From NCBI RefSeq assembly GCF_054482525.1, contig NZ_CM137006.1: a stretch of 64,000 nt of DNA; one strand, 5' to 3'. Below are positions 49,896 to 60,023 of this stretch, piece by piece (position 1 is the first letter of the stretch; every line of letters begins with the position of its first letter). Below the pieces are notes generated by a model. It was not told where the DNA came from and made no database searches. It saw only the letters and a list, made by a program, of their open reading frames with translations. The position numbers and the translations under genes were made by a program.

Positions 49896-50729
49896 TTATC
49901 GCATTATGCCCATAAAGCCATGCACACCCATATACACACCAACTAAGCCAATCAACAGACTGGAAAAATAGGGGGCGCGTTTAGCGAGAGTGTTAAATCC
50001 GCTCCAGCGTTTTGCGACCTGCTGAACGCTGATTGCTGCGCCAACGCCTACGGTGACCAGCGTTAACGCCAGGCCGATGCTGAAACTGACGACCAGTGTT
50101 GCGCCCAGTGTCAGGGCTTTCAACTGAATGCAAATCAACAGCACGGTAATTGCTGCCGGGCAGGGGATAAGGCCACCGGTTAAGCCAAATAACAAAATTT
50201 GCCAGTTGGTGACCTCTCTACCATCAAAGCGTCGTTTAATGTCATTGGCATGGGCTCGTGCATGAGCATCCTGATACTCCCCATGTTCGTGATGGTGATG
50301 ATGTCCATGGTCGTGGTGATCTTCGTGATCGTGATGATGATGGTGATGATGCTCATGATCATGCCCGTGCATATTCTCCAGCCAGTTGCGTTCGCCGCGC
50401 CAGGTACGCCAGAACATCCAGAACGCGGTGCCAATAATGATCACCGCGGAAATCAACTGGAGCCACGGTTCTGCTGATTGAGCAGTAAAGCGCTTACTGA
50501 TCACCATCCCGCCAAAGGCAATCAACCAGACCACCGCGGTATGCGAAATGGTTGCTGCCAGTCCGAGCATCACCGCCTGTTTAATGGTGCCTTTGATGGC
50601 GATGATAAACGCCGCCATCATCGTTTTTGAGTGCCCTGGTTCCAGGCCATGAAGCGCACCAAGTAAGATGGCGCTGGGGATGAAGAACCAGGCGTTTCCT
50701 TGCTGAAGAAGAGTGGTAAATTCGGTCAT
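49896..50729 (-). CDS. rcnA: nickel/cobalt efflux pump RcnA
   Basis: 277-aa membrane ORF with a histidine-rich loop (HGHDHEHHHHHHHDHEDHHDHGHHHHHEHG). Confidence 0.92.
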   Translation of the reverse strand: MTEFTTLLQQGNAWFFIPSAILLGALHGLEPGHSKTMMAAFIIAIKGTIKQAVMLGLAATISHTAVVWLIAFGGMVISKRFTAQSAEPWLQLISAVIIIGTAFWMFWRTWRGERNWLENMHGHDHEHHHHHHHDHEDHHDHGHHHHHEHGEYQDAHARAHANDIKRRFDGREVTNWQILLFGLTGGLIPCPAAITVLLICIQLKALTLGATLVVSFSIGLALTLVTVGVGAAISVQQVAKRWSGFNTLAKRAPYFSSLLIGLVGVYMGVHGFMGIMR

Positions 50730-50766
50730 GATAATAATTCTTAGTATTAATTCGGCAATCCGATTC

Positions 50767-50801
50767 TACTCCCCCCCAGTACCTGATACTACCCCCCAGT
50801 A
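50767..50801. promoter_or_regulatory. tandem RcnR operator sites (TACT-G6-N-AGTA type) in the rcnA-rcnR intergenic region
   Basis: tactcccccccagta (50767-50781) and tactaccccccagta (50787-50801) between the divergent rcnA and rcnR. Confidence 0.7.
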
Positions 50802-50849
50802 GATTAATAGTGCTATGATTTTTCATGTTCTTGTTAACCAGGTGTTGCC

Positions 50850-51122
50850 ATGTCTCATACCATCCGTGATAAACAGAAACTGAAAGCGCGTGCCAGTAAG
50901 ATTCAGGGCCAGGTCGTGGCGCTCAAGAAAATGCTCGACGAGCCGCACGAATGCGCTGCAGTTTTACAACAGATTGCTGCTATCCGTGGCGCGGTAAACG
51001 GTCTGATGCGGGAAGTGATTAAAGGTCATCTGACGGAACACATCGTTCACCAGGGGGATGAGCTAAAACGTGAAGAAGATCTGGATGTCGTTCTGAAGGT
51101 GCTGGATTCTTATATCAAATAA
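50850..51122 (+). CDS. rcnR: Ni/Co-responsive repressor RcnR (CsoR/RcnR family)
   Basis: 90-aa [24 protein letters not shown]...; recalled identity to RcnR. Confidence 0.9.
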
Positions 51123-51210
51123 TTTATTAACGCTATTGTAAAACTGCCGTTTTTCCTCGTTTACAACGGGTGCGCTGGACATTACCATCCTCCTCTGCGA
51201 TTTATCATCG

Positions 51211-51292
51211 CAACCAAACGACTCGGGGTGCCCTTCTGCGTGAAGGCTGAGAAATACCCGTATCACCTGATCTGGATAATGCCAGCGTAGGG
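51211..51292 (+). repeat. attL: left copy of the 82-bp direct repeat (thiM riboswitch aptamer segment)
   Basis: Identical to 59101-59182. Confidence 0.8.
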
Positions 51293-51375
51293 GGCCAAAA
51301 TAGTCTTGAAAATTATGTGGTTGTATCTCTTTTTGACCATAAATCATGCTGTTAAGGTACAAAAAGGGGTCGTTT

Positions 51376-52683
51376 ATGAGGTCAAGAACTCTCCCATACA
51401 CATTTCAGCGAAACGGTAATTACTATCTACAAATCCGGCTTTCGGATGGTCGGATATACAAAAAATCACTTTTTACTGACAGTTATCGCGAAGCATCGGC
51501 GTTGATGATTGGCCTTACTCCGCACATTCCTTTCGTTAAATCACTCGCTACTCCGTTGCCGCAATTTAATAAGTTTGTTTCAAACTTGATCGCTTCGTCA
51601 CGTAACGTAATGATTCCGTTGCCACTCCCTCAGCAATTGAACAATATTTCTAAAGAAGTTTTGCAGCTTCAACCACCAGCCAAACCGGAAAAGGTACTAA
51701 CACTTGCTGATGCGTGGGCTATGTACAAGGAGGAAAGAGGTCGAAATTGGACAAAATCGATCTCAATAGCAAATGAGCGTTATATGGAGGTATTGCTTGT
51801 TGTCTTGGGAAAAGAAACAGACGTAACGGCAATCACCAAACAAGATATTAAGCGAGTAATGGAAACTGTCGAAAACTTACCAAAGCGTGTAGTGCAACCG
51901 TATAGGTCAATGACTATTCAGCAACTAATCGAATGTGATGATGTGCTGCCAGAGGATTTAGTTGGTGCTGAGGCTGTACATAAGCACCTTAAAATCTACA
52001 AATCGTTATTCAAAACATTTCTGACTGAAAACAAAGATATTCTATCTAAGTCTCCGACTGATGGAATAGTAGCGGCACCATCCAAAGCTAGGTTTGGTGC
52101 ATACAGTGCAGCAGAAATGAAAAAATTTGTAGGATGGGCACTAAAGCAGCCTGATGGATGGCAGAAGTGGATCACTTTGTTGTTGGCGTACACAGGAGCC
52201 AGAAGAGGTGAGATTGCTAAACTGGAGAAGTCGCAGATCAAATTTGATGAAGATAGCCAGCGGCACTATCTTCTGATCGCGGAAAGAAGGCTGGGTAAAA
52301 CTGAGAATGCTACAAGACAGGTAGTGATTCATCCCAAACTGATTGAGTGGGGGTTTCTGGATTTTGTTAACCGCCAATGGAAAGAGAAAATCTTTTCGGA
52401 AGTCTCAGGTCGAAATATGTCAAAGATAGGTAAAGTTCTTTCAGATGTTCGTGATCAGCTTGATATTCCTTATCTTGATGATTATGGGCAGCGGCGCTTG
52501 GTGCATAGTTTCCGGCATACTATGATTTCTACTTGTTTAGCTGGTTGGGTGAGTAATTTGGCGCATCTGCAACAGGTGGTAGGTCATGAAAAGAGTGGAG
52601 TAGGGATTACCCAGCGTTATCTGCACACATTCCCACTTTCCACCGTTTGTTATGTGATCGATGGTCTTTGTTGGGAGACTTAG
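51376..52683 (+). CDS. int: tyrosine site-specific integrase
   Basis: ATG at 51376 preceded by SD aaaagggg; C-terminal catalytic block HSFRHTMISTCLAGW...GHEKSGVGITQRYLH (R, H-x-x-R, Y). Confidence 0.85.
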   Translation: MRSRTLPYTFQRNGNYYLQIRLSDGRIYKKSLFTDSYREASALMIGLTPHIPFVKSLATPLPQFNKFVSNLIASSRNVMIPLPLPQQLNNISKEVLQLQPPAKPEKVLTLADAWAMYKEERGRNWTKSISIANERYMEVLLVVLGKETDVTAITKQDIKRVMETVENLPKRVVQPYRSMTIQQLIECDDVLPEDLVGAEAVHKHLKIYKSLFKTFLTENKDILSKSPTDGIVAAPSKARFGAYSAAEMKKFVGWALKQPDGWQKWITLLLAYTGARRGEIAKLEKSQIKFDEDSQRHYLLIAERRLGKTENATRQVVIHPKLIEWGFLDFVNRQWKEKIFSEVSGRNMSKIGKVLSDVRDQLDIPYLDDYGQRRLVHSFRHTMISTCLAGWVSNLAHLQQVVGHEKSGVGITQRYLHTFPLSTVCYVIDGLCWET

Positions 52684-52811
52684 TTATTCGTGTATCCTTC
52701 TTAGTGTATAACCAGCTAATAATTTGTAGATTTTTATTGTCTGAGATCAAAAATTTTCACAACTAATTTACAATAATAACTTAAGATGAATTTAGGCTTA
52801 GTGAGTCTTCT

Positions 52812-53537
52812 ATGGTTAAAAATTTAGGCAAAAAATACAAGTATGGCGATCAACCGATAAGAGCTATTACCATACAGATAATTGCTAATCAGTTTGGTGG
52901 GGCTGCAACGGCTAAGCAGGTAGATGATTATCTTAGAAAGCTATTTCCATCTTATAAAGATAATACTTGGCTCAATTTAATTGCTAATACAGTTAATTGT
53001 AAGCGGAGCTACTGGAGTTTCAACAAAACTGCCCGACGAACTGATGATGTAACTCATCGGCATCATAAGTATGACCGATTGTTCAAGCGTGGAAATATTT
53101 TTGAAATCTATCAACCATCTGTGCACGGTATTTGGGAATTATACCAGGATTTAGAAGGGATGTGGCGTTATCGTCAAGTAAAATCGGTTTTCGAAGAAGC
53201 TGTTGAGACGGCTGCAAAATTATCTTCAGTGGAACGAAAGCAAATTTTAGCGACAGAAAGTAAAATCCCGGAACTAATCGAAGTAACAACACGAGTTTAT
53301 AAACGAAGCCCATATGTAGTTGCTGAAGTTCTTTTGAGAGCAAATGGAAAATGTCAATATTGTAAGCGAGATGCTCCTTTTCTAAAGGAAGATGGTACTC
53401 CATTTCTAGAAGTTCATCATATTGAGTGGCTTTCAAAGGGGGGGGAGGACTCTGTGGAAAATGCTATTGCATTATGTCCTAATTGCCATAGACAAGCCCA
53501 TTATGGCGATCTGACATTACTACCTGTTAATAAATAG
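52812..53537 (+). CDS. McrA-like HNH endonuclease (candidate type IV / modification-dependent restriction or defense nuclease)
   Basis: C-terminal CQYCKRDAPF...LEVHHIEWLSKGGEDSVENAIALCPNCHRQAHY closely resembles the recalled McrA HNH region; N-terminal about 190 aa unrecognised. Confidence 0.65.
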   Translation: MVKNLGKKYKYGDQPIRAITIQIIANQFGGAATAKQVDDYLRKLFPSYKDNTWLNLIANTVNCKRSYWSFNKTARRTDDVTHRHHKYDRLFKRGNIFEIYQPSVHGIWELYQDLEGMWRYRQVKSVFEEAVETAAKLSSVERKQILATESKIPELIEVTTRVYKRSPYVVAEVLLRANGKCQYCKRDAPFLKEDGTPFLEVHHIEWLSKGGEDSVENAIALCPNCHRQAHYGDLTLLPVNK

Positions 53538-53614
53538 GCTTGATGAAAGTTCTATTTCTATATTTTTCAATATACAAATTTCCCCAAAAACGGCGTGAAT
53601 ATCACGCCGATCAA

Positions 53615-53962
53615 TCATACTTCAGAACACATACTCAATGTGTAAACAGCCATCTCCCCATCGGGATTAGAAGGGCGTAATACAAATATCGGTATACTGC
53701 CATTGTCAATGTATGTGGCTGCAACCCCTCCGTCAGGTGTAGCATACATCTTTGCGATGCTTTTTTGACCTACAAAATCAAGTCTCCAAGTTTTACCGCC
53801 AAGATTTATGGTCATTTTTTTATCTTGTATATCAAAAGTTGAATCTACAGAAACTTTCTGACTTCCCGAGTCAATATGACCTTCCTGTATTGCTTTACAG
53901 GAAAAGGTTGTGGCGTGGCCCATCACTGGAATTAACAAAGCGGCAAATACTAGTTTTTTCAT
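53615..53962 (-). CDS. hypothetical secreted protein
   Basis: Start placed at MKKLVFAALLIPVMGHA (signal peptide); divergent from the XRE-family gene. Confidence 0.45.
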   Translation of the reverse strand: MKKLVFAALLIPVMGHATTFSCKAIQEGHIDSGSQKVSVDSTFDIQDKKMTINLGGKTWRLDFVGQKSIAKMYATPDGGVAATYIDNGSIPIFVLRPSNPDGEMAVYTLSMCSEV

Positions 53963-54072
53963 TTGTCTCCCTTGGTGTGTCAAATGGATGGTGATGCTAA
54001 TAATACATGATTGATTCAAAATGTCACGATTAGTGCGTGGTTAATTGGTGCGTCAAATTGCATCTTTGTGCC

Positions 54073-54537
54073 ATGCGAAAGAATCTGAGATACCTTTTTG
54101 GACAACGAGTAAAAGAGTTCCGTATAGCTATTGGCTTAAGCCAAGAGGCCTTTGCAGATCGGTGTGGTTTTGCACGTAGTTATATGAGTCGAATTGAGCG
54201 TGGTTGCTCTAATGCATCTCTTGATGCAATTGAGGTTCTGGCTGACGCTTTGCGTATTGAGCCTTGGCAGTTACTGGCTTCTGATTCAAGGAAACCTGAT
54301 GATCAGGAGGTACTTGTTCCTTATGCTGCAGATGGGTCGTGTTTTCATCCAGGATTGGCAAGTACTCGCGATGGTTCGTTTAGAGTAGGGGAAAAATCAG
54401 CCCAGAAACGTTTCAGTTCGTTCAATGAAGCTCTCGAATACCTTCGTGGAATGGAAACCGCGAAGTGGCGTAGGCCTAATGCTAGTGGTAATTGGGGAAT
54501 TGTATCTGCGGTTAAATGGGATCGACTGAATCAATAA
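54073..54537 (+). CDS. XRE-family helix-turn-helix transcriptional regulator with C-terminal extension
   Basis: N-terminal HTH (LRYLFGQRVKEFRIAIGLSQEAFADRCGFARSYMSRIERG); start could also be 54037. Confidence 0.6.
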   Translation: MRKNLRYLFGQRVKEFRIAIGLSQEAFADRCGFARSYMSRIERGCSNASLDAIEVLADALRIEPWQLLASDSRKPDDQEVLVPYAADGSCFHPGLASTRDGSFRVGEKSAQKRFSSFNEALEYLRGMETAKWRRPNASGNWGIVSAVKWDRLNQ

Positions 54538-54703
54538 GATATCAGTAATTTTCGGGCCACTCCACAAGGCAATAAGTGGCTTAGTGGTGATTATCGAAGG
54601 GGAATACAAGCGAGCACCTAGGCACCATTGCAAGAACCGCTCAACGCTGAGATCAGCAAGCCCCGATTTTTGCCGACCGTCCCTGTCAAATATCAAGGAG
54701 GCA

Positions 54704-55255
54704 TTACGCCACCTGCTCTTTCTTGATACGTTGCACCGTCTGCGTGCTGACACTGAAATCTTTTGCTACGCTCCGAATTGAGCCACCATTCGCGAGAGCG
54801 GCAGCAATTCCCGCTCGATCAATTGCTTTTCCATTACCACGTTTTGCTATACGTCCAGCGGCCTTGGCTGCGGCGATCCCTTCACGTTGACGCTCAAGCA
54901 TCATTTCACGTTCCATTTGTGCCACTGCTGCAAGAACTGTGAGCATCATATTCCCTGCGGGAGAGTTCTTTCCTGTCTTAAAGTCTTCTTTATGGAAATG
55001 CACAGACACGCCGCGCTTTGTTAATTGCTCTACAGTTGCCAGAAGGTCGGCTGTATTACGACAAAGGCGATCAATACTATGGACGTGTAACACGTCACCC
55101 TCCCGCACATAGTTCATCATTGCCTCAAACTGTGGGCGCTGAGTGTTCTTGCCTGACGCTTTATCTTCAAAGACTTTATCAAGAGTTACTCCTGCTAATT
55201 GACGGTCTGTGTTTTGTTGCACAGTCGATACCCTAATGTATCCAATATTAGCCAT
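54704..55255 (-). CDS. small serine recombinase (resolvase/invertase family)
   Basis: N-terminal catalytic motif GYIRVSTVQQ (Ser nucleophile) and C-terminal HTH; 183 aa. Confidence 0.8.
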   Translation of the reverse strand: MANIGYIRVSTVQQNTDRQLAGVTLDKVFEDKASGKNTQRPQFEAMMNYVREGDVLHVHSIDRLCRNTADLLATVEQLTKRGVSVHFHKEDFKTGKNSPAGNMMLTVLAAVAQMEREMMLERQREGIAAAKAAGRIAKRGNGKAIDRAGIAAALANGGSIRSVAKDFSVSTQTVQRIKKEQVA

Positions 55256-55741
55256 CTTCTTTTTTCTTCTGTATTGATTTGTGTGTAGTGATTATTGAAC
55301 GTGTTGATTAGGTGTGTAAAGTACTTTTTTCACTACGAAATTCGAAGTTTTTTAGTGTGGTGATTTAGCCTGCCTTATCACTACACTTCTTGCATGAGAA
55401 TCATGTAGTTACATTTTGGTAAAATTAGCAAGCTATTAAATTGTGTGTTTATTTTGAAAAAATAATTTTTGTTGCATTAAAGAAAACTTGTTCGACAAAT
55501 AATAGGTTGATTTTTGATCAATAATTTCTGATAGTGCTCTGTAAGCCGCATTACACAAGGCGCAGCGAAAGTGATGTAAAAGTGAAGAAAGCTAACATTG
55601 CACTTTTAAACTACTTTTCATTGAATTTTTTAGTATGGAATTACACAGGAATAAGTTAGGGATATTCTATGATTTACACAGGGAATATAGGGGGATTATG
55701 GTATTACACAGAGTGAGTGCTATGTGATGATTGGTAGTAAC

Positions 55742-55850
55742 GGTAGGTCACTGTGAACTAGGGGGGTAGGTCACTGTGAACTAGGGGGGTAGGTCACTGT
55801 GAGCTAGGGGGTAGGTCACTGTGAACTAGGGGGTAGGTCACTGTGAACTA
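55742..55850 (+). repeat. iteron array (5 direct repeats of about 22-24 bp), candidate replication origin
   Basis: ggtaggtcactgtgaactaggggg repeated five times head-to-tail, flanked by AT-rich DNA and further ttacacag / gtgtaatt motifs. Confidence 0.7.
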
Positions 55851-57106
55851 CAATAAGACTATAATAAGACTATTAATAAAACTATATTAGATTATTAATT
55901 AGATCATAATAATAATATTCTTTATATCTATATATATATGATCTTTTGCCTTCCGGCGTTAGCTTCACTCTCTGGCAAGCAGCCTTACTCCGCTACCTTT
56001 CGGGCTACGTTGGCTGGCCCGTTCCGCTCACACCGAAAGCAAAGCGTTACTTTCTTCGTGTAACTTCGTTGGCGGTAACGCCCACGAAGGAATACTATTG
56101 CGCTGTGCGCAGTAAGAGTAATCACCTAACCAATCATCTGATTGCTTACGTGTTAACTCTCTCTAACTCTTAATTACCCTCCTACATTTAATAACTCTCG
56201 TTATTCTCTGTAGTTGTGTAATTACTCGAAGAGAGAGCGGCTAAAGCTCAATTACACTCTGCTTTCCTCGTGTAATTTCACTAAGCCTCAATACAATTTC
56301 ACTTCCTACATTCTGTAGTCGTGTAATTGTTTTCGGTGGAAAAGCCAGAGGCGACACCGAAAGAGAATTCTGATCTTATTAATCTTATCTATCTTAGTTA
56401 TCTTACTTACTTTATCTACTTTATTATTAATAATAGCTTTATAAGCTCTCTGTGTAGCTCTCTGACGCAAGAAACAGAGTTCAGGAAGGGAATCACCTTA
56501 GAAAAGTGTTCTTTGCGTCATAATGTGTTTTATGAAGGATTCAGAGGTGTTTCATAACAGAGATGTATAGAGGATACTTTAGGTAATTAAAAATAAGGGG
56601 TCTAAATGCTTCTCTAACAGCATTAAGCAGGGTAGAGAATGGAAACCGCTTTGCCTACATATATAAACTCACTACAGGGCTTTACAGAGCGTTTTATAAA
56701 GTGACTCTCTGTTTTATATCTACCATCACCTTTTCATATACCTAACAAATACAAAATAAGCCCCTTAAATAAGCCTCTGGCGAGCTAAACAGCCATTACA
56801 TAAGAGAATGTATTGCTTTTATCAAAACCTCGTTAGAACGCGTTTTAGAGCGTTTTAGCGGATAATGAAGAATAGCACTACACAGGAGAGCACGAATTGC
56901 TAAGAAAAAATGTAACTACATGAAAAAGATCAGATTTTTTGTGAAAAGGTATTGACAAACGTCTCTTTCTGTGCAATAATAGGTATTAGAGGGACAGGAA
57001 TAGATTCTTATCCTCTAAATAATTAAACCAATGCACCGCACTTTGAAGCCCAAGGCTTGTAAGGTGTGTTTTTTCTTTTAACCAAATAGAATAAGGAGGC
57101 TAATTA

Positions 57107-57295
57107 ATGAAATATTTTACTCCACAGGATGTAGTAGAAGCCTGGAAACGTGGTGAGATCAACCGCTTTAAAGTAAGGATGTATAGAAACACCGCTCGCC
57201 GTTGTGGTTATCCAGAGCGTGAAAAATGTTTTGACGATGCACTAAAAATTATTGATGAACTGCGTAAAGCTGAGAAAGAAGCAGAGAAAAAATAA
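57107..57295 (+). CDS. hypothetical small protein (62 aa)
   Basis: ATG preceded by strong SD aaggagg; first of four co-directional genes each with a strong SD. Confidence 0.45.
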   Translation: MKYFTPQDVVEAWKRGEINRFKVRMYRNTARRCGYPEREKCFDDALKIIDELRKAEKEAEKK

Positions 57296-57317
57296 TAGAC
57301 AAGAGAAGGAGAAAACT

Positions 57318-57485
57318 ATGAGCGAAACTAAGAAACCAATTCCGCGCACTTACCTACACGTTGACCCTGAAATCTTCAAGGTTTTATTTGCTGAAGCCAA
57401 GAAAAGGCAAATTATGGTCAGTGATTTGATGTTAGAAATCATTACTGAAGCAGCAGAGAACATCAAACAAAAAAAGGGTAAGTGA
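57318..57485 (+). CDS. hypothetical small protein, possibly ribbon-helix-helix DNA-binding (56 aa)
   Basis: ATG preceded by SD aaggag; below the ORF-track cut-off from this start; RHH call is weak pattern-based inference. Confidence 0.4.
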   Translation: MSETKKPIPRTYLHVDPEIFKVLFAEAKKRQIMVSDLMLEIITEAAENIKQKKGK

Positions 57486-57536
57486 TCCTCATTCACTTTA
57501 GTAGCGCATTAAGCGTGATTTATAAGGAGATTTTTA

Positions 57537-58226
57537 ATGATTAATCAACTAACTTTTACAAAACACTATGACACGTTTGATAATGTATCAAAGATTTATT
57601 CTGATAAATTCCCTCAAGGAAAAGATTTAGATCTATTACATATTGTGCTTTATTTTCGATTCCTTAGTTATCAGGAAAACAACCTTAATTGTTATGAAAG
57701 TCACGAAACATTAGCTAAGATTTTTAAGTCTTCAGCGTCAACAATTAAACGTAAGATAAACGATCTTAAAGAGATGGGATTATTAGAAACATCCCCACAT
57801 CCTGATCCGTATATTTCATCTTTGATTTACAATGCTCTCCCTCTCACAGATGCACATATTACTCCCCCAGGAGAATCATCACTCTCTGATCTTTCTGAGG
57901 CAGAAGAAGCACAGGAACAACCTAAAGGCCATAAACAGCCTTCTTTTGATGTTCTTGATGATTGGGATACGCCTTTACCCTGGGAGACGGAAGAAACACC
58001 TGTTTCATCAAGTGAAAAAGTAGCTAATGATAATGAGGAGGATGTGTTAGAGAATTTTGCCTCTCTTATCATCCAGGAGAAACACACAAGAACAGGAGGA
58101 GCATCATTTATTGAGTTTGCAAATTCACTAGCTTGTAGATACGGGCTAAAACGACCAAATGGTATTGAGGCATATTTTTCTAAGAATTACCCAAATATAT
58201 ACGATGACTTTGATATTCCATTTTAA
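57537..58226 (+). CDS. putative winged-helix DNA-binding / replication-initiator-like protein
   Basis: 229-aa ORF with SD aaggag; N-terminal HTH-like segment and acidic C-terminus; lies downstream of the iteron array. Confidence 0.4.
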   Translation: MINQLTFTKHYDTFDNVSKIYSDKFPQGKDLDLLHIVLYFRFLSYQENNLNCYESHETLAKIFKSSASTIKRKINDLKEMGLLETSPHPDPYISSLIYNALPLTDAHITPPGESSLSDLSEAEEAQEQPKGHKQPSFDVLDDWDTPLPWETEETPVSSSEKVANDNEEDVLENFASLIIQEKHTRTGGASFIEFANSLACRYGLKRPNGIEAYFSKNYPNIYDDFDIPF

Positions 58227-58237
58227 TAAGGAGGGTT

Positions 58238-58483
58238 ATGATTCAATATTTAGTAAAAAATCAAGTAGACAGAATTCAGTGTAATGACACAGGAAAACGC
58301 ATCTACGAGACACTTGTTTACCTCTATAAAGGAAAGCCAACACCGCTAAAATATAGCGATGTGTTACATCGAGCAGGTTGCTCTGAGTCAGGTTTAAAAT
58401 TCTGGCTGAAACAGCTATCAAATTTCGGTGTTATTGAAATGAAAGAGCTGTCTTTTTCTACATTCAACCTCAAGAAGTTATAG
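58238..58483 (+). CDS. hypothetical small DNA-binding-like protein (81 aa)
   Basis: ATG preceded by SD aaggagg. Confidence 0.4.
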   Translation: MIQYLVKNQVDRIQCNDTGKRIYETLVYLYKGKPTPLKYSDVLHRAGCSESGLKFWLKQLSNFGVIEMKELSFSTFNLKKL

Positions 58484-58648
58484 AAAATAGAATTCATCTA
58501 TTCCACGCTCTAATTCTATTTCTCTGTTTAATATAAAAGGAAAACATTATTATGGTAATAGCTATGTGGTGGTTGTTGTTTTTTATGCTCGTAGAAACAT
58601 ATGCAAGTAAGTCTGGAAAACAAAAATAATATATTGATGATTTGTTTT

Positions 58649-58888
58649 TTATAACTTCGTGGTGTCAAGTCCAGCAGCTTTGAGTCGCTCGGTAAGATTT
58701 CTCATTTTGCTGAACTCTGTACCAAAGCTGGCTTTAAGTCCTACACCTTCACAAAACTCTTTTGCCGTAACCTTTTTCAGATGGTCAGCATATTTGATCA
58801 TCTGGAGGTGCATTTCCATCGTTTGGCTATTTCGTGGTGCGCTGCTAATGGCTTGCTTAATGTTCTCGTAGATCTGGGTTTCTGTCAT
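58649..58888 (-). CDS. hypothetical small HTH-like protein (79 aa)
   Basis: 79-aa ORF convergent with the four-gene module; possible HTH (VTAKEFCEGVGLKASFGTEFSKM). Confidence 0.35.
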   Translation of the reverse strand: MTETQIYENIKQAISSAPRNSQTMEMHLQMIKYADHLKKVTAKEFCEGVGLKASFGTEFSKMRNLTERLKAAGLDTTKL

Positions 58889-59100
58889 TTTTTATCTCAC
58901 CTATCAAATTTAGATAAATAATATAAATTAGCAAATTAAGATAATCAATAGTTTTTATCATCTGAATGATAGATGTTAAATGTTTCTTTTTCATTTCTGA
59001 TATGGGGTACAAAATGGGGTACACAGAGAAGAAGCAATTAATGGAGGCGAGCTTGCATCTGCAAGCCACTTCCCCTAAGCTGGCACAAAATATAGAGATT

Positions 59101-59234
59101 CAACCAAACGACTCGGGGTGCCCTTCTGCGTGAAGGCTGAGAAATACCCGTATCACCTGATCTGGATAATGCCAGCGTAGGGAAGTCACGGACCACCAGG
59201 TCATTGCTTCTTCACGTTATGGCAGGAGCAAACT
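59101..59234 (+). promoter_or_regulatory. thiM TPP riboswitch (thi-box aptamer plus expression platform)
   Basis: Sequence cgactcggggtgcccttctgcgtgaaggctgagaaatacccgtatcacctgatctggataatgccagcgtagggaagtc... matches the E. coli thiM riboswitch from memory; ends at the thiM start codon; the first 82 nt double as attR. Confidence 0.85.
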
Positions 59235-60023
59235 ATGCAAGTCGACCTGCTGAGTTCCGCGCAATCTGCGCACGCGTTACACCTTTTTCACCAACATTCC
59301 CCTCTTGTGCACTGCATGACCAACGATGTGGTGCAAACCTTTACTGCCAATACCTTGCTGGCGCTCGGTGCATCGCCAGCGATGGTTATCGAAACCGAAG
59401 AGGCCAGTCAGTTTGCGGCTATCGCCAGTGCGTTGCTGATTAACGTTGGCACGCTGACGCAGCCACGCGCACAGGCGATGCGTGCCGCCGTTGAACAGGC
59501 AAAACGCTCTCAAACACCCTGGATGCTTGATCCAGTAGCGGTGGGTGCACTCGATTATCGCCGCCGTTTTTGTCTGGAACTTCTGTCTCATAAGCCAACC
59601 GCCATACGTGGTAATGCTTCGGAAATCATGGCATTAGCTGGCGTTGCTAATGGTGGACGGGGAGTGGATACCACTGACGCCGCAGCTAACGCGATACCCG
59701 CTGCACAAACACTGGCACGGGAAACTGGCGCAATCGTCGTGGTCACTGGCGAGATGGATTATGTTACCGATGGACATCGTATCATTGGTATTCACGGTGG
59801 CGATCCGTTAATGACCAAAGTGGTAGGAACTGGCTGTGCATTATCGGCGGTTGTCGCTGCCTGTTGTGCGTTACCAGGCGATATGCTGGAAAATGTCGCA
59901 TCTGCCTGTCACTGGATGAAACAAGCCGGAGAACGCGCAGTCGCCAGAAGCGAGGGGCCAGGCAGTTTTGTTCCACATTTCCTTGATGCGCTCTGGCAAT
60001 TGACGCAGGAGGTGCAGGCATGA
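59235..60023 (+). CDS. thiM: hydroxyethylthiazole kinase
   Basis: 262-aa [23 protein letters not shown]...; recalled identity to ThiM. Confidence 0.95.

Follow-up and report, generated by a model that had tools for sequence, protein, structure and literature searches.

A probable iteron-type replication module in a reduced, phage-satellite-like island of Escherichia coli

Introduction

Does a 7.9-kb island in an Escherichia coli chromosome carry its own replication origin, together with a protein that starts replication there? The question is raised by positions 54,704 to 58,483 of a 64,000-nucleotide stretch of contig NZ_CM137006.1 (assembly GCF_054482525.1; hereafter "the window"), in which an earlier note had recognized a serine recombinase, a repeat array and a four-gene operon, and from which it had concluded that the island could exist as an autonomous replicon after excision. 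Our sequence comparisons indicate that the island very probably has such an origin and such an origin-binding starter protein, and that stable autonomy of the island is unlikely.

Results

A mobile element with the appearance of a reduced phage satellite

The island is integrated at the thiM TPP riboswitch, is flanked by an 82-bp perfect direct repeat, and encodes an integrase (51346–52683; PHROG phrog_1, 7e-27); the perfect att repeats and the integrase identify it as a mobile element. Phage satellites, among them the P4-like, PICI, cfPICI and PLE families, combine an integrase, att repeats and a replication module with genes for hijacking helper virions and with helper-dependent transfer, and the island has an integrase, att repeats and an apparent replication module. 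In full-length relatives, sited at thrW and tRNA-Gly, there are genes for the major head, the tape measure and the tail; the window island has neither structural genes nor genes for hijacking helper virions, has kept the module nonetheless, and looks like a reduced satellite. Its cargo includes a type IV restriction-like HNH gene. The module is present in 1089 of 5426 complete E. coli genomes (~20%), and its family has so far been annotated only as 'hypothetical' or 'transcriptional regulator'.

The non-coding region has the layout of an iteron-type origin

55742–55850, plus strand: iteron array of type N1, five head-to-tail copies of GGTAGGTCACTGTGA(A/G)CTAGGGG
55851–55935, unstranded: AT-rich stretch, GC 0.16–0.21, with ~11-bp periodic ACTATAATAAG repeats
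55940–56135, unstranded: GC-rich non-coding segment with hairpins, conserved in an alignment of 9 loci

The AT-rich non-coding stretch of about 1.8 kb that the earlier note had described is indeed present, extending for 1851 bp between the start of the recombinase gene (55255) and gene 1 (57107); its only ORFs are short, TTG- or GTG-started ones of at most 76 aa, the frames of which are broken by single-base indels among close relatives. The five head-to-tail repeats reported within it were recovered by Tandem Repeats Finder (4.8 copies at 96% matches, score 197; the period is 22, except in the first two units, where it is 23) and by a second repeat search, which placed five in-register copies at spacings of 23, 23, 22 and 22. 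Iteron-type origins have at least three tandem direct repeats of ~17–23 bp beside AT-rich DNA, and here GC is 0.16 at 55840–55919, directly after the repeats. An AT-rich stretch also follows the cognate array in three loci that were read directly (L004, L005 and L019). The stretch at 55851–55935 is the presumed DNA-unwinding element. The segment beyond it contains the hairpin sequence CTTCGTTGGCGGTAACGCCCACGAAG and the palindrome TGCGCTGTGCGCA, the latter found in the other lineage too; its DNA folding z-scores are −2.3 (plus strand) and −3.1 (minus strand), and close relatives differ in it by frame-breaking indels.

Two features of the region count against an origin: the distance of 1.7 kb from the iterons to the putative initiator gene, and the absence from 55256–57106 of the DnaA box TTATCCACA at up to 1 mismatch. 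DnaA boxes are typical of many iteron plasmids but are not universal.

Gene 3 resembles replication initiators and ends in an SSB-like tip

57537–58226, plus strand: gene 3, 229 aa, putative initiator (PHROG, HTH_36, AlphaFold2 model, mosaic domains)

The gene 3 protein comprises a winged helix (residues ~20–110), a conserved ALPLTDAHITPP motif, a disordered acidic linker (115–164) and a helical C-domain (167–226), and terminates in an SSB-like ...YDDFDIPF. The winged-helix N-terminus predicted in the earlier note is borne out by Pfam (HTH_36, 4.8e-5) and by an AlphaFold2 model (pLDDT 75.6) with a single winged helix. A relation to Rep families is supported in part. PHROG returned replication-initiation families (phrog_270, 1.9e-9, residues 29–188; phrog_428, 3.4e-6; phrog_8102), as well as DnaD-like (186, 3.1e-5) and O-like (391/678) families, the matches other than the top one spanning 3e-6 to 3e-4. 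As a whole, the matches cover mainly the winged-helix part. Pfam Rep_3 (PF01051) and RepA_N (PF06970), however, gave no match. Structure searches with Foldseek gave weak matches to the RepA_N initiators 4pql, 5kbj and 4pt7 (109–113 columns, prob 0.99, TM ~0.5 by target, E 0.03–0.09) and to DnaD-N (2v79).

The C-terminal tip is a shared property of the family. All 17 locus versions read (16 loci and L019) end in an acidic [DS][IL]PF tip; many of the 39 cluster representatives that a search of 1.84 billion proteins brought up share it, and conservation of Phe229 across the family alignment is at least 90%. The C-terminal hexapeptide of SSB itself, DDDIPF, docks DnaG and other partners (PMC6163395). 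By its likeness to that hexapeptide, the gene 3 tip may recruit host replication proteins.

Repeat type covaries with the gene 3 DNA-binding domain

Across 16 related loci, the N-terminal winged-helix domain of gene 3 is exchangeable and falls into five types (N1–N5). These five domain clusters pair with five repeat families in 4/4 loci for N1, 5/5 for N2, 2/3 for N3, 2/2 for N4 and 2/2 for N5, the one exception, L004, having a decayed, degenerate array. Every locus with an N1-type gene 3 (L002, L003, L012 and L019) has an N1 array, of 3.8–5.8 copies. Repeat type follows the gene 3 N-domain rather than the C-domain or the flank lineage, and N3 is seen in both flank lineages (L004 vs. L007 and L014). 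Because the loci are related, the 16 are not independent observations; the comparison across them nevertheless points to gene 3 as the cognate initiator, encoded in cis, of the adjacent repeats. In strain CE0007a two N1-type copies coexist, so integrated copies show no incompatibility, which counts against an origin. Some elements also contain extra foreign iteron arrays.

Gene 3 could instead encode a transcriptional regulator or immunity repressor, with the repeats as its operator array, in which case the covariation would reflect immunity types and not replicon types. Phage immunity regions, too, have exchangeable repressor–operator pairs. The NCBI name of the protein is 'transcriptional regulator'; HTH_36, a generic family, is its only Pfam match; generic winged-helix folds rank alongside RepA_N in the structure search, all at E of at least 0.03, and MarR/PadR/ArsR-type repressors dominate that search. 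Each of these observations counts against an initiator. However, the repeats have no strong promoter beside them (the operon promoter is ~1.1 kb downstream, and the start of the recombinase ~490 bp away) and abut the 16%-GC stretch; the best profile matches of gene 3 are all replication initiators; and an SSB-like tip and an acidic linker are not repressor features. The parallel with phage chimeric nucleases, presented below, also concerns an origin. We regard the repressor explanation as distinctly unlikely, and a putative initiator acting at its own iterons as the better account of the covariation.

Lytic phages encode counterparts of the DNA-binding domains

The lytic Justusliebigvirus proteins inny_184 and muut_154 each contain two island-type DNA-binding domains, N4+N3 or N5+N3, at 82–88% identity, fused to a T5orf172/MUG113-like endonuclease domain (phrog_681, 4e-18; MUG113, 5.4e-4). 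The five iteron types themselves are absent from all 50,697 phage records. This pattern mirrors the way in which Odn of ICP1 cuts the iterons of the PLE origin (Barth et al., 2021, PMC8263062). It appears that related versions of the module are attacked by some lytic phages with a look-alike nuclease. The window's own N1 domain was found in no sequenced phage, which counts against an origin.

A phage nuclease directed at a pac site would cripple a satellite as well, and the repeats could be a packaging (pac/cos-type) site to which a small-terminase-like gene 3 protein directs island DNA for entry into helper-phage capsids. Small terminases often bind repeated sites through an N-terminal winged helix, and the full-length relatives have head and tail genes. 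Yet no terminase family is found among the PHROG or Pfam matches of gene 3, the window island keeps the module though it has no structural genes, and replication better fits the AT-rich stretch and the SSB-like tip. We consider packaging very unlikely, and replication the better explanation.

The putative initiator gene lies in an operon behind a conserved terminator

56952–56980, plus strand: operon promoter, TTGACA, 17 nt, TG-AATAAT, 11/12 matches
56986–57085, plus strand: operon leader upstream of the gene 1 Shine-Dalgarno sequence, with a 5' hairpin (56986–57018) and an intrinsic terminator (hairpin and U-run, 57037–57085)
57107–57295, plus strand: gene 1, 62 aa, conserved in all relatives
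57318–57485, plus strand: gene 2, 55 aa, 100% identical to muut_153 of the lytic phage muut

The four co-directional genes of the earlier note, each led by a Shine-Dalgarno sequence (AAGGAG(G), 5–9 nt upstream), are present with the stated sizes of 62, 229 and 81 aa, and only gene 2, given as 56 aa, is in fact 55 aa. The TTGACA of the promoter is invariant in 9 loci. The leader has an MFE of −26.3 kcal/mol (z −2.4); across the same 9 loci its terminator stem is kept in most, two loci having some broken or gapped cells, and its 5' hairpin is retained partly through changed sequences. The leader may act as an attenuator or, alternatively, yield a small RNA of ~95 nt. Profile searches found no family match for gene 1, and gene 2, possibly a ribbon-helix-helix protein by sequence pattern, has no Pfam or PHROG match.

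A ribbon-helix-helix gene 2 protein would resemble ParR/ParG, and the repeats could on that ground be a plasmid-type centromere, bound by an adaptor for partition. Partition centromeres likewise consist of short direct repeats in an array, to which small DNA-binding proteins attach. The island, however, encodes no ParA/ParM/TubZ-type NTPase, and the type of repeat goes with gene 3 and not with gene 2, making a centromere highly improbable and gene 3 the preferred partner of the repeats.

A second set of sites surrounds the origin core

55550–55709, minus strand: four GTGTAAT/GTGTAAA sites left of the iterons (55550, 55640, 55673, 55703)
56058–56327, plus strand overall: to the right of the origin core, five sites (GTGTAAT or GTGTAAC) at 56058+, 56216+, 56251−, 56270+ and 56321+
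58238–58483, plus strand: gene 4, 81 aa, predicted small winged-helix DNA-binding protein (AlphaFold2, Foldseek)

The earlier note had listed 'ttacacag' and 'gtgtaatt' as separate repeated motifs; the repeats are real, but both are the 7-mer GTGTAAT in opposite orientations. Of 10 exact GTGTAAT copies in the 64-kb window, 7 lie within 55550–56327, in minus orientation left of the iterons and mostly plus to the right. In a second lineage of relatives GTGCAAT replaces GTGTAAT on both sides. The flanking sites are probably bound by a second factor, for which the gene 4 protein is a candidate: its model (pLDDT 87.4, pTM 0.78) matches the winged-helix DNA-binding domains of CodY and HlyU/ArsR in Foldseek, and gene 4 type tracks GTGTAAT vs. 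GTGCAAT, as lineage does equally.

The adjoining serine recombinase has its own candidate sites

54704–55255, minus strand: small serine recombinase of resolvase/invertase type, 183 aa (ORF, PHROG and PDB sequence matches)
55283–55388, unstranded: candidate (res-like) recombinase binding-site cluster, GTGTRGTGATT half-sites at 55283(+), 55355(+) and 55376(−)
55401–55417, unstranded: perfect inverted repeat of 17 nt, left arm (TCATGTAGTTACATTTT), itself near-palindromic, ATGTA-GT-TACAT
56907–56923, unstranded: right arm of the same repeat, lying 29 nt ahead of the operon promoter's −35 hexamer

The resolvase/invertase-type recombinase noted left of the repeats is a 183-aa ORF with the catalytic YIRVSTVQQ (residues 6–14) and C-terminal HTH of small serine recombinases, enzymes that have their nucleophilic Ser near residue 10. 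It matches phrog_125 'DNA invertase' (2.2e-61) and, over nearly its full length, the PDB sequences of Tn3 resolvase (4.4e-27), gamma-delta resolvase (8.6e-27; residues 3–178) and Gin invertase (1.6e-24; residues 3–173), and it adjoins the non-coding region in 6/9 of the first related loci. Just upstream of the gene, half-sites 55355(+) and 55376(−) form a 34-bp palindromic site, AGTGTGGTGAT-N12-ATCACTACACT, with weaker half-site copies at ~55301(+) and ~55329(−); at 0–1 mismatch, GTGTRGTGATT occurs in the window only as the strong half-sites of this cluster. In L009 the recombinase allele is 62% identical, and ~215 bp (55256–55470), including the half-sites, are replaced along with the gene. 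We infer that the recombinase binds the cluster. The res site of resolvases has three dimer-binding subsites next to the gene; the three strong and two weak half-sites here are candidates for the res-like inverted repeats that the earlier note proposed to look for beside the recombinase.

The 17-nt arms are 100% complementary, lie 1489 nt apart, and bracket the origin (2 matches in the window vs. 0.14 expected). They raise the alternative of an invertible switch, in which the recombinase would act as a DNA invertase and flip the 1.5-kb segment between the arms, changing the orientation of the origin region with respect to both the operon promoter and the recombinase gene. Serine invertase crossover sites are near-palindromes with an asymmetric core, as both arms are (core GT); 'DNA invertase' is the top PHROG family of the recombinase, the cassette of which is always accompanied by the left arm. 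However, L002 and L003, which lack the recombinase, still have the right arm (2 mismatches), L005 and L007 have the recombinase but no right arm, and in L004 the two arms differ in their core dinucleotide. The inverted junction was seen in 0/685 complete E. coli genomes with a match, a test of low power because only three of them have two perfect arms. Equally, a palindrome-binding regulator might use the arms as operators. An invertase switch is unlikely; the most likely task of the recombinase is to resolve multimers formed by replication, or else to rearrange the excised circle in some other way, and this is the least supported step of the scheme below. The multimer-resolution role claimed earlier is no more than plausible: the enzyme type, the private upstream cassette and the candidate sites fit resolution and inversion alike.

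Discussion

The reading of the locus as an iteron-type origin with a Rep-like protein, first put forward in the earlier note, is well supported by comparative evidence: initiator profiles, repeat/domain covariation, the 16%-GC stretch and phage nucleases that copy the domains. We think it probable that 55500–58483 serves a small integrative element, phage-satellite-related and reduced, as its replication module, working as follows. The gene 3 initiator would bind the five 22-bp iterons and open the adjacent AT-rich stretch without DnaA, as proposed from the lack of a DnaA box. Its SSB-C-terminus-like tip, perhaps with the helical C-domain, would bring in SSB-docking proteins: PriA-type primosome components, DnaG, the clamp-loader chi subunit, or a helper-phage replisome. 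The operon, with its near-consensus promoter and conserved leader terminator, would probably be off in the integrated state and read through only on induction. A second factor, possibly the gene 4 protein, would bind the GTGTAAT sites around the core, and the recombinase, with its own site cluster, would resolve multimers or rearrange the excised circle.

The island encodes no helicase, primase, loader or partition gene, and no small natural plasmid with the module was found, both of which count against an origin; with no DnaA box, and with the operon behind a conserved terminator, the earlier claim of an 'autonomous replicon' was too strong. The relatives and the phage countermeasure point instead to a phage-satellite replicon with transient firing.

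Iteron origins on islands are already a known kind, and the module itself is uncharacterised. A close parallel is the RepA-ori system of PLE (PMC8263062): both have a non-coding iteron origin bound (here, by inference) by the N-terminal DNA-binding domain of the initiator, both are replicon modules exchanged between elements, and ICP1 Odn, like the Justusliebigvirus proteins, is a chimera of an initiator-like DNA-binding domain and a T5orf172/GIY-YIG-type nuclease. Here, however, host and phage are E. coli and Justusliebigvirus, the putative initiator combines a single winged helix with an SSB-like tip, and the window's N1 type has no phage counterpart; the phage proteins, known from their sequences, carry two tandem DNA-binding domains of different specificities, at 82–88% identity vs. 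42% for Odn.

SaPI/PICI elements are likewise integrase-bearing islands with an initiator–origin specificity pair that varies between islands. In SaPIs, Rep is itself a helicase that has a primase as partner, and the ori directly follows the rep gene; gene 3, in contrast, encodes a 229-aa protein without an NTPase domain, 1.7 kb downstream of its iterons. Lambda O at ori-lambda and DnaD-like organisers offer a further analogy, with an N-terminal winged helix that binds repeats beside an AT-rich region (here, putatively) and a C-terminal part that recruits the helicase-loading machinery, as the gene 3 C-terminus might; the O-like and DnaD-like PHROG matches and the DnaD-N fold match agree with it. 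Unlike the lambda system, the module has no P/DnaC-like partner gene and its repeats lie outside the initiator gene, and we know of no terminal SSB-like motif in lambda O. Rep_3-type iteron plasmids (pSC101 RepA, F RepE, R6K pi) share the ~22-bp direct repeats by an AT-rich stretch, the initiator gene in cis and an autoregulatory logic, but here there is no Rep_3 match, one winged helix rather than two, no DnaA box and no plasmid occurrence. The recombinase aligns end to end with both the Tn3/gamma-delta resolvase and Hin/Gin groups, and a candidate cluster of inverted half-sites is located just upstream of its gene; in contrast to those systems, no transposase and no inversion polymorphism were seen.

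A broader interpretation, which we offer tentatively and hold with less confidence than the replication module itself, is that the island represents an undescribed, very common family of E. coli satellites or satellite remnants, with a modular, SSB-tail-mimicking initiator that borrows the replisome of host or helper, a family which Justusliebigvirus counters with origin-directed chimeric nucleases, their two DNA-binding domains stolen from initiators. If the origin reading is right, the module would be a compact DnaA-independent replicon, the specificity of which could be reprogrammed by swapping domain and repeat set together, and a testable case of an initiator that recruits replication proteins through an SSB-tail mimic. 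It would provide an E. coli model of a satellite–phage arms race at origins, so far documented only for Vibrio PLE/ICP1. On the broader interpretation, this would be the first Odn-like counter-defence outside that pair, and the at least five initiator/iteron types and extra foreign arrays would be footprints of that race. The origin reading would further account for the way in which small islands with defence cargo, here an HNH gene, could amplify during infection.

Repeat type follows the type of the putative initiator in the proposed origin region

The putative origin and the operon downstream of it comprise the following features:

55401-55417 and 56907-56923, arms of a perfect 17-nt inverted repeat that brackets the origin
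55742-55850, five head-to-tail repeats (period 22-23, 96% matches)
56986-57085, operon leader
57107-58483, + strand, operon of genes 1, 2, 3 and 4 (62, 55, 229 and 81 aa)
57537-58226, + strand, gene 3, encoding the putative initiator

The array of five head-to-tail copies reported in the earlier note is borne out, and an 85-bp stretch in which GC falls to 0.16 lies directly after it. The non-coding character that the note had assigned to the stretch, which measures 1851 bp, likewise holds: no ORF exceeds 76 aa and single-base indels among close relatives disrupt their frames, and we therefore reject hidden genes. The two repeated motifs that had been described there, 'ttacacag' and 'gtgtaatt', are both present but are not separate motifs; they are one 7-mer, GTGTAAT, oppositely oriented on either side of the core, and a span of 780 bp contains 7 of the 10 copies that the 64-kb window has. 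No DnaA boxes were found in the region. An Rfam scan of 50500-59500 at E up to 1 found no known RNA family in the 1.85-kb stretch; its only matches were the TPP riboswitch, in two copies, and a tmRNA-like hit below threshold, and the latter (58891-59145; 15 bits vs. a gathering score of 47; E 0.0075) overlaps the island right end and a riboswitch and is probably a chance match.

Comparison of 16 loci shows that gene-3 proteins are mosaics, combining five types of N-terminal winged-helix domain (N1-N5; the window has N1) with three C-terminal types, and that five families, which track N-type, can be distinguished among the tandem repeats nearest the AT-rich stretch.

Table. Repeat unit, and loci with the cognate array, for each N-terminal domain type
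N1; TAGGTCACWGTGARCTAGGGGG; 4 of 4 loci
N2; CCCYAACAGAAWWHTGTTA; 5 of 5 loci
N3; ACCYAGGAAATGAGTTCCTACCT; 2 of 3 loci (degenerate copies only in the third, L004)
N4; GGTAGTAACGATAYNNNACATC; 2 of 2 loci
N5; TGATACCCCTATCAA; 2 of 2 loci

Repeat type goes with the N-domain, not with the C-domain or the flank lineage (both lineages include N3 loci, for example), and the cassette is replaced while the flanks around it stay conserved. Cassette exchange together with pairing of N-type and repeat is the signature to be expected from an origin and the determinant of its specificity, a sequence pattern that, the loci being related, is not a formal statistical proof. Four of the related loci also carry foreign repeats, short arrays or single copies of N2, N3, N4 or N5 types, upstream of the element's own cognate array (L002 12264-12404, L003 12292-12579, L014 2277-2291, L017 2254-2275); they may allow cross-activation, act as decoys for phage nucleases, or be scars left by recombination.

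The gene-3 protein resembles replication initiators and has an SSB-like tip

In a PHROG profile search the 229-aa protein matched several families annotated as replication initiation proteins, with phrog_270 at 1.9e-9 and further matches to phrog_428, phrog_8102, the lambda-O-like families 391 and 678, and the DnaD-like family 186, in agreement with its proposed Rep-like nature. HTH_36 was the sole Pfam match, and the PDB held no sequence match. In the AlphaFold2 model (mean pLDDT 75.6), a winged helix (residues about 20-110) is joined through a disordered acidic linker (115-164) to a C-domain of four helices. Foldseek matches to the model were weak (E at least 0.03), mixing MarR-type repressors with RepA_N initiators and DnaD-N; the longest alignments (109-113 columns, weak E) were to the staphylococcal-plasmid RepA_N initiators 4pql, 5kbj, and 4pt7. 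The family is small: a search of 1.84 billion proteins at E up to 1e-3 gave 39 cluster representatives. The winged helix is immediately followed, at residues 101-112 (57837-57872), by the motif ALP(L/I/F)TDAH(I/V)xPP, near-invariant across the five DNA-binding-domain types.

In all 16 loci the last residues of the gene-3 protein are IPF or LPF, preceded by acidic ones, whatever the C-domain type (...YDDFDIPF, ...EDDFDIPF, ...IYDSIPF; window tip at 58203-58226). Many distant family members end likewise (...DDFEIPF, ...FDPIPF, ...EEFELPF, ...FEDLPF), the terminal Phe is at least 90% conserved in the family, and the tip is preceded by any of three unrelated C-domains. A natural deletion variant of 186 aa in strain CE0007a (L019) has lost the helical C-domain and kept the tip. 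The SSB of E. coli has the C-terminus ...MDFDDDIPF. DnaG and other partners dock on the conserved last six residues of SSB, DDDIPF (PMC6163395). By its sequence, the gene-3 tip may recruit SSB-partner proteins to the opened origin, which would explain how the 229-aa protein could start replication although the region lacks a DnaA box and no gene for a helicase, primase, or loader is close by. We found no precedent for an initiator with an SSB-like tail in the searchable literature.

Lytic phages carry initiator-like domains fused to an endonuclease domain

The Justusliebigvirus phages muut and inny are lytic and have genomes of about 147 kb. Segments of both relate to window 57306-57547: the counterpart of island gene 2 is identical in muut (muut_153, 100% protein identity) and nearly identical in inny (inny_185), and the gene that follows encodes a chimeric protein (inny L010 3013-4336; muut L011 2513-3730). 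In inny_184, residues 1-140 are 87% identical to N4 and residues 160-264 are 82% identical to N3; in muut_154, residues 1-133 are 88% identical to N5 and residues 123-227 are 82% identical to N3. Each ends in a C-terminal endonuclease domain that matches phrog_681 'endonuclease' (2-4e-18), Pfam MUG113 (5.4e-4), and, weakly, T5orf172, and whose relatives are putative homing endonucleases of T5-like phages. Neither chimera has the SSB-like tip. The motif ALP(L/I/F)TDAH(I/V)xPP is also kept after the first domain of inny_184. A search of 50,697 phage records, muut and inny included, found no iteron of any of the five types, and so the binding targets of the chimeras lie in islands.

The chimeras closely parallel the ICP1 origin-directed nuclease Odn, in which an N-terminal domain 42% identical to the RepA_N of PLE, a Vibrio cholerae phage satellite, is joined to a T5orf172 nuclease that cuts the PLE origin at iterons (PMC8263062); in both cases an initiator-like DNA-binding domain is fused to a nuclease. 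By this analogy muut_154 and inny_184 look like an E. coli counterpart of Odn, with cleavage as the predicted activity. The resemblance speaks for the origin reading and also for a satellite-like lifestyle. The N1 domain of the window has no phage counterpart in the collection, a tblastn search of phages with gene 3 gave a distant match to inny_184 only, and a literature search on satellites of Stephanstirmvirinae phages found nothing relevant.

The serine recombinase and its candidate site

The serine recombinase is of the small type (183 aa), similar to Tn3/gamma-delta resolvases (~4e-27) and to Gin (1.6e-24), and 6 of the first 9 loci have it beside the non-coding stretch, divergently oriented in each. 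In L009, a related thiM island, a 62%-identical allele is accompanied by a different upstream sequence (~330 bp) replacing window 55256-55470; allele and upstream sequence having been swapped together, this segment of ~215 bp is the recombinase's private cis region. All near-exact GTGTRGTGATT matches of the 64-kb window fall within it and include a 34-bp palindromic site, making the cluster, by sequence, a plausible candidate res-like site. Of the res-like inverted repeats sought beside the recombinase, a half-site cluster with a palindromic site was found, for which a res-like role is plausible.

The 17-nt arms that bracket the putative origin may be invertase sites or operators. An invertible switch is not supported: when 5426 genomes were searched with a synthetic inverted junction, none spanned it (0 of 685 with a match, a test of low power), and the right arm inconsistently accompanies the recombinase. 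The most economical role for the recombinase is to resolve replicated multimers; the enzyme type and the candidate site are compatible with the multimer-resolution system of the earlier note, a role that is not established.

Operon control

The operon promoter matches consensus at 11 of 12 positions and has an extended -10 TG, and AAGGAG(G) precedes all four genes, in line with the near-consensus Shine-Dalgarno sequences of the earlier note. Between the promoter and the gene-1 Shine-Dalgarno, the leader (56986-57085) contains a 5' hairpin and then a hairpin of 12 predicted pairs with a U-run; the latter, an intrinsic terminator, is largely conserved in nine aligned loci whose 5' hairpin sequences differ. 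The leader is either an attenuator silencing the replication genes until induction or a small RNA of ~95 nt. Gene 4 encodes a small winged-helix protein predicted with confidence (pLDDT 87), and its type tracks the GTGTAAT vs. GTGCAAT variant of the flanking sites. Because lineage tracks the variant equally, assigning gene 4 to the GTGTAAT sites is a guess. Neither gene 1 nor gene 2 gave a family match; ribbon-helix-helix identity for gene 2 is without profile support, a guess from sequence pattern.

The module resides in islands and in elements with virion genes

The window belongs to an E. coli chromosome, and its segment 54600-58600 matches strains SCU-102 and CE0007a at 100% identity. The island measures 7,890 bp. 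At its borders stand the two copies of a perfect 82-bp direct repeat (51211-51292 and 59101-59182), each of which holds a full TPP riboswitch (51214-51309 and 59104-59200; Rfam 61 and 71 bits); the island thus sits in the thiM riboswitch and regenerates it. One riboswitch copy lies ahead of the island integrase and the other ahead of thiM, an unusual non-tRNA attachment site, and the integrase could come under thiamine control. The island gene order is:

left end, tyrosine integrase
52812-53537, HNH protein similar to methyl-directed (type IV) restriction enzymes (PADLOC 1.3e-23)
134-aa ORF and XRE-type HTH protein
serine recombinase, 1851-bp non-coding stretch, four-gene operon
right end, opposite strand, 79-aa HTH-like gene

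Cargo in the slot after the integrase varies among otherwise similar thiM islands: the HNH protein in the window, a GmrSD-domain enzyme in L009 (1067-2638), and an unknown 316-aa protein in L004 (8837-9787). The slot looks like a defence-gene hotspot.

Of 5426 complete E. coli genomes, 1089 have the module, which lies in thiM islands and in elements, estimated at 11-12 kb, at thrW and a tRNA-Gly gene. The latter elements (L002 15350-22345; L005 14885-22829; L007 8726-12338) have, besides a tyrosine integrase gene, genes for a major head protein (phrog_29), a tail/baseplate protein, and a protein of tape-measure type (phrog_16051, 2e-51); among the proteins scanned, a portal or terminase gene was neither annotated nor recognised. 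Such a set of genes is not an obvious fit for P4-like, PICI, cfPICI, or PLE satellites. Carriage by plasmids and phages was confined to three large plasmid records and partial phage matches, and an iteron search of viral contigs gave one match, a 51.7-kb IMG/VR contig (UViG), which has no bearing on packaging. CE0007a carries two coexisting N1-type copies, and incompatibility avoidance is therefore not supported.

Discussion

The core claim of the earlier note, an iteron origin with a cognate initiator, stands on strong indirect evidence: the pairing of N-type and repeat, the PHROG initiator matches, the adjacent AT-rich stretch, and the phage chimeras with their parallel in Odn. The further claim, that the excised island is an autonomous replicon, is not established; in our reading the module is the replicon of a reduced, satellite-like island, with replication probably transient and following induction. 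The family is uncharacterised, and its initiator architecture and the apparent phage countermeasure are the parts of interest.
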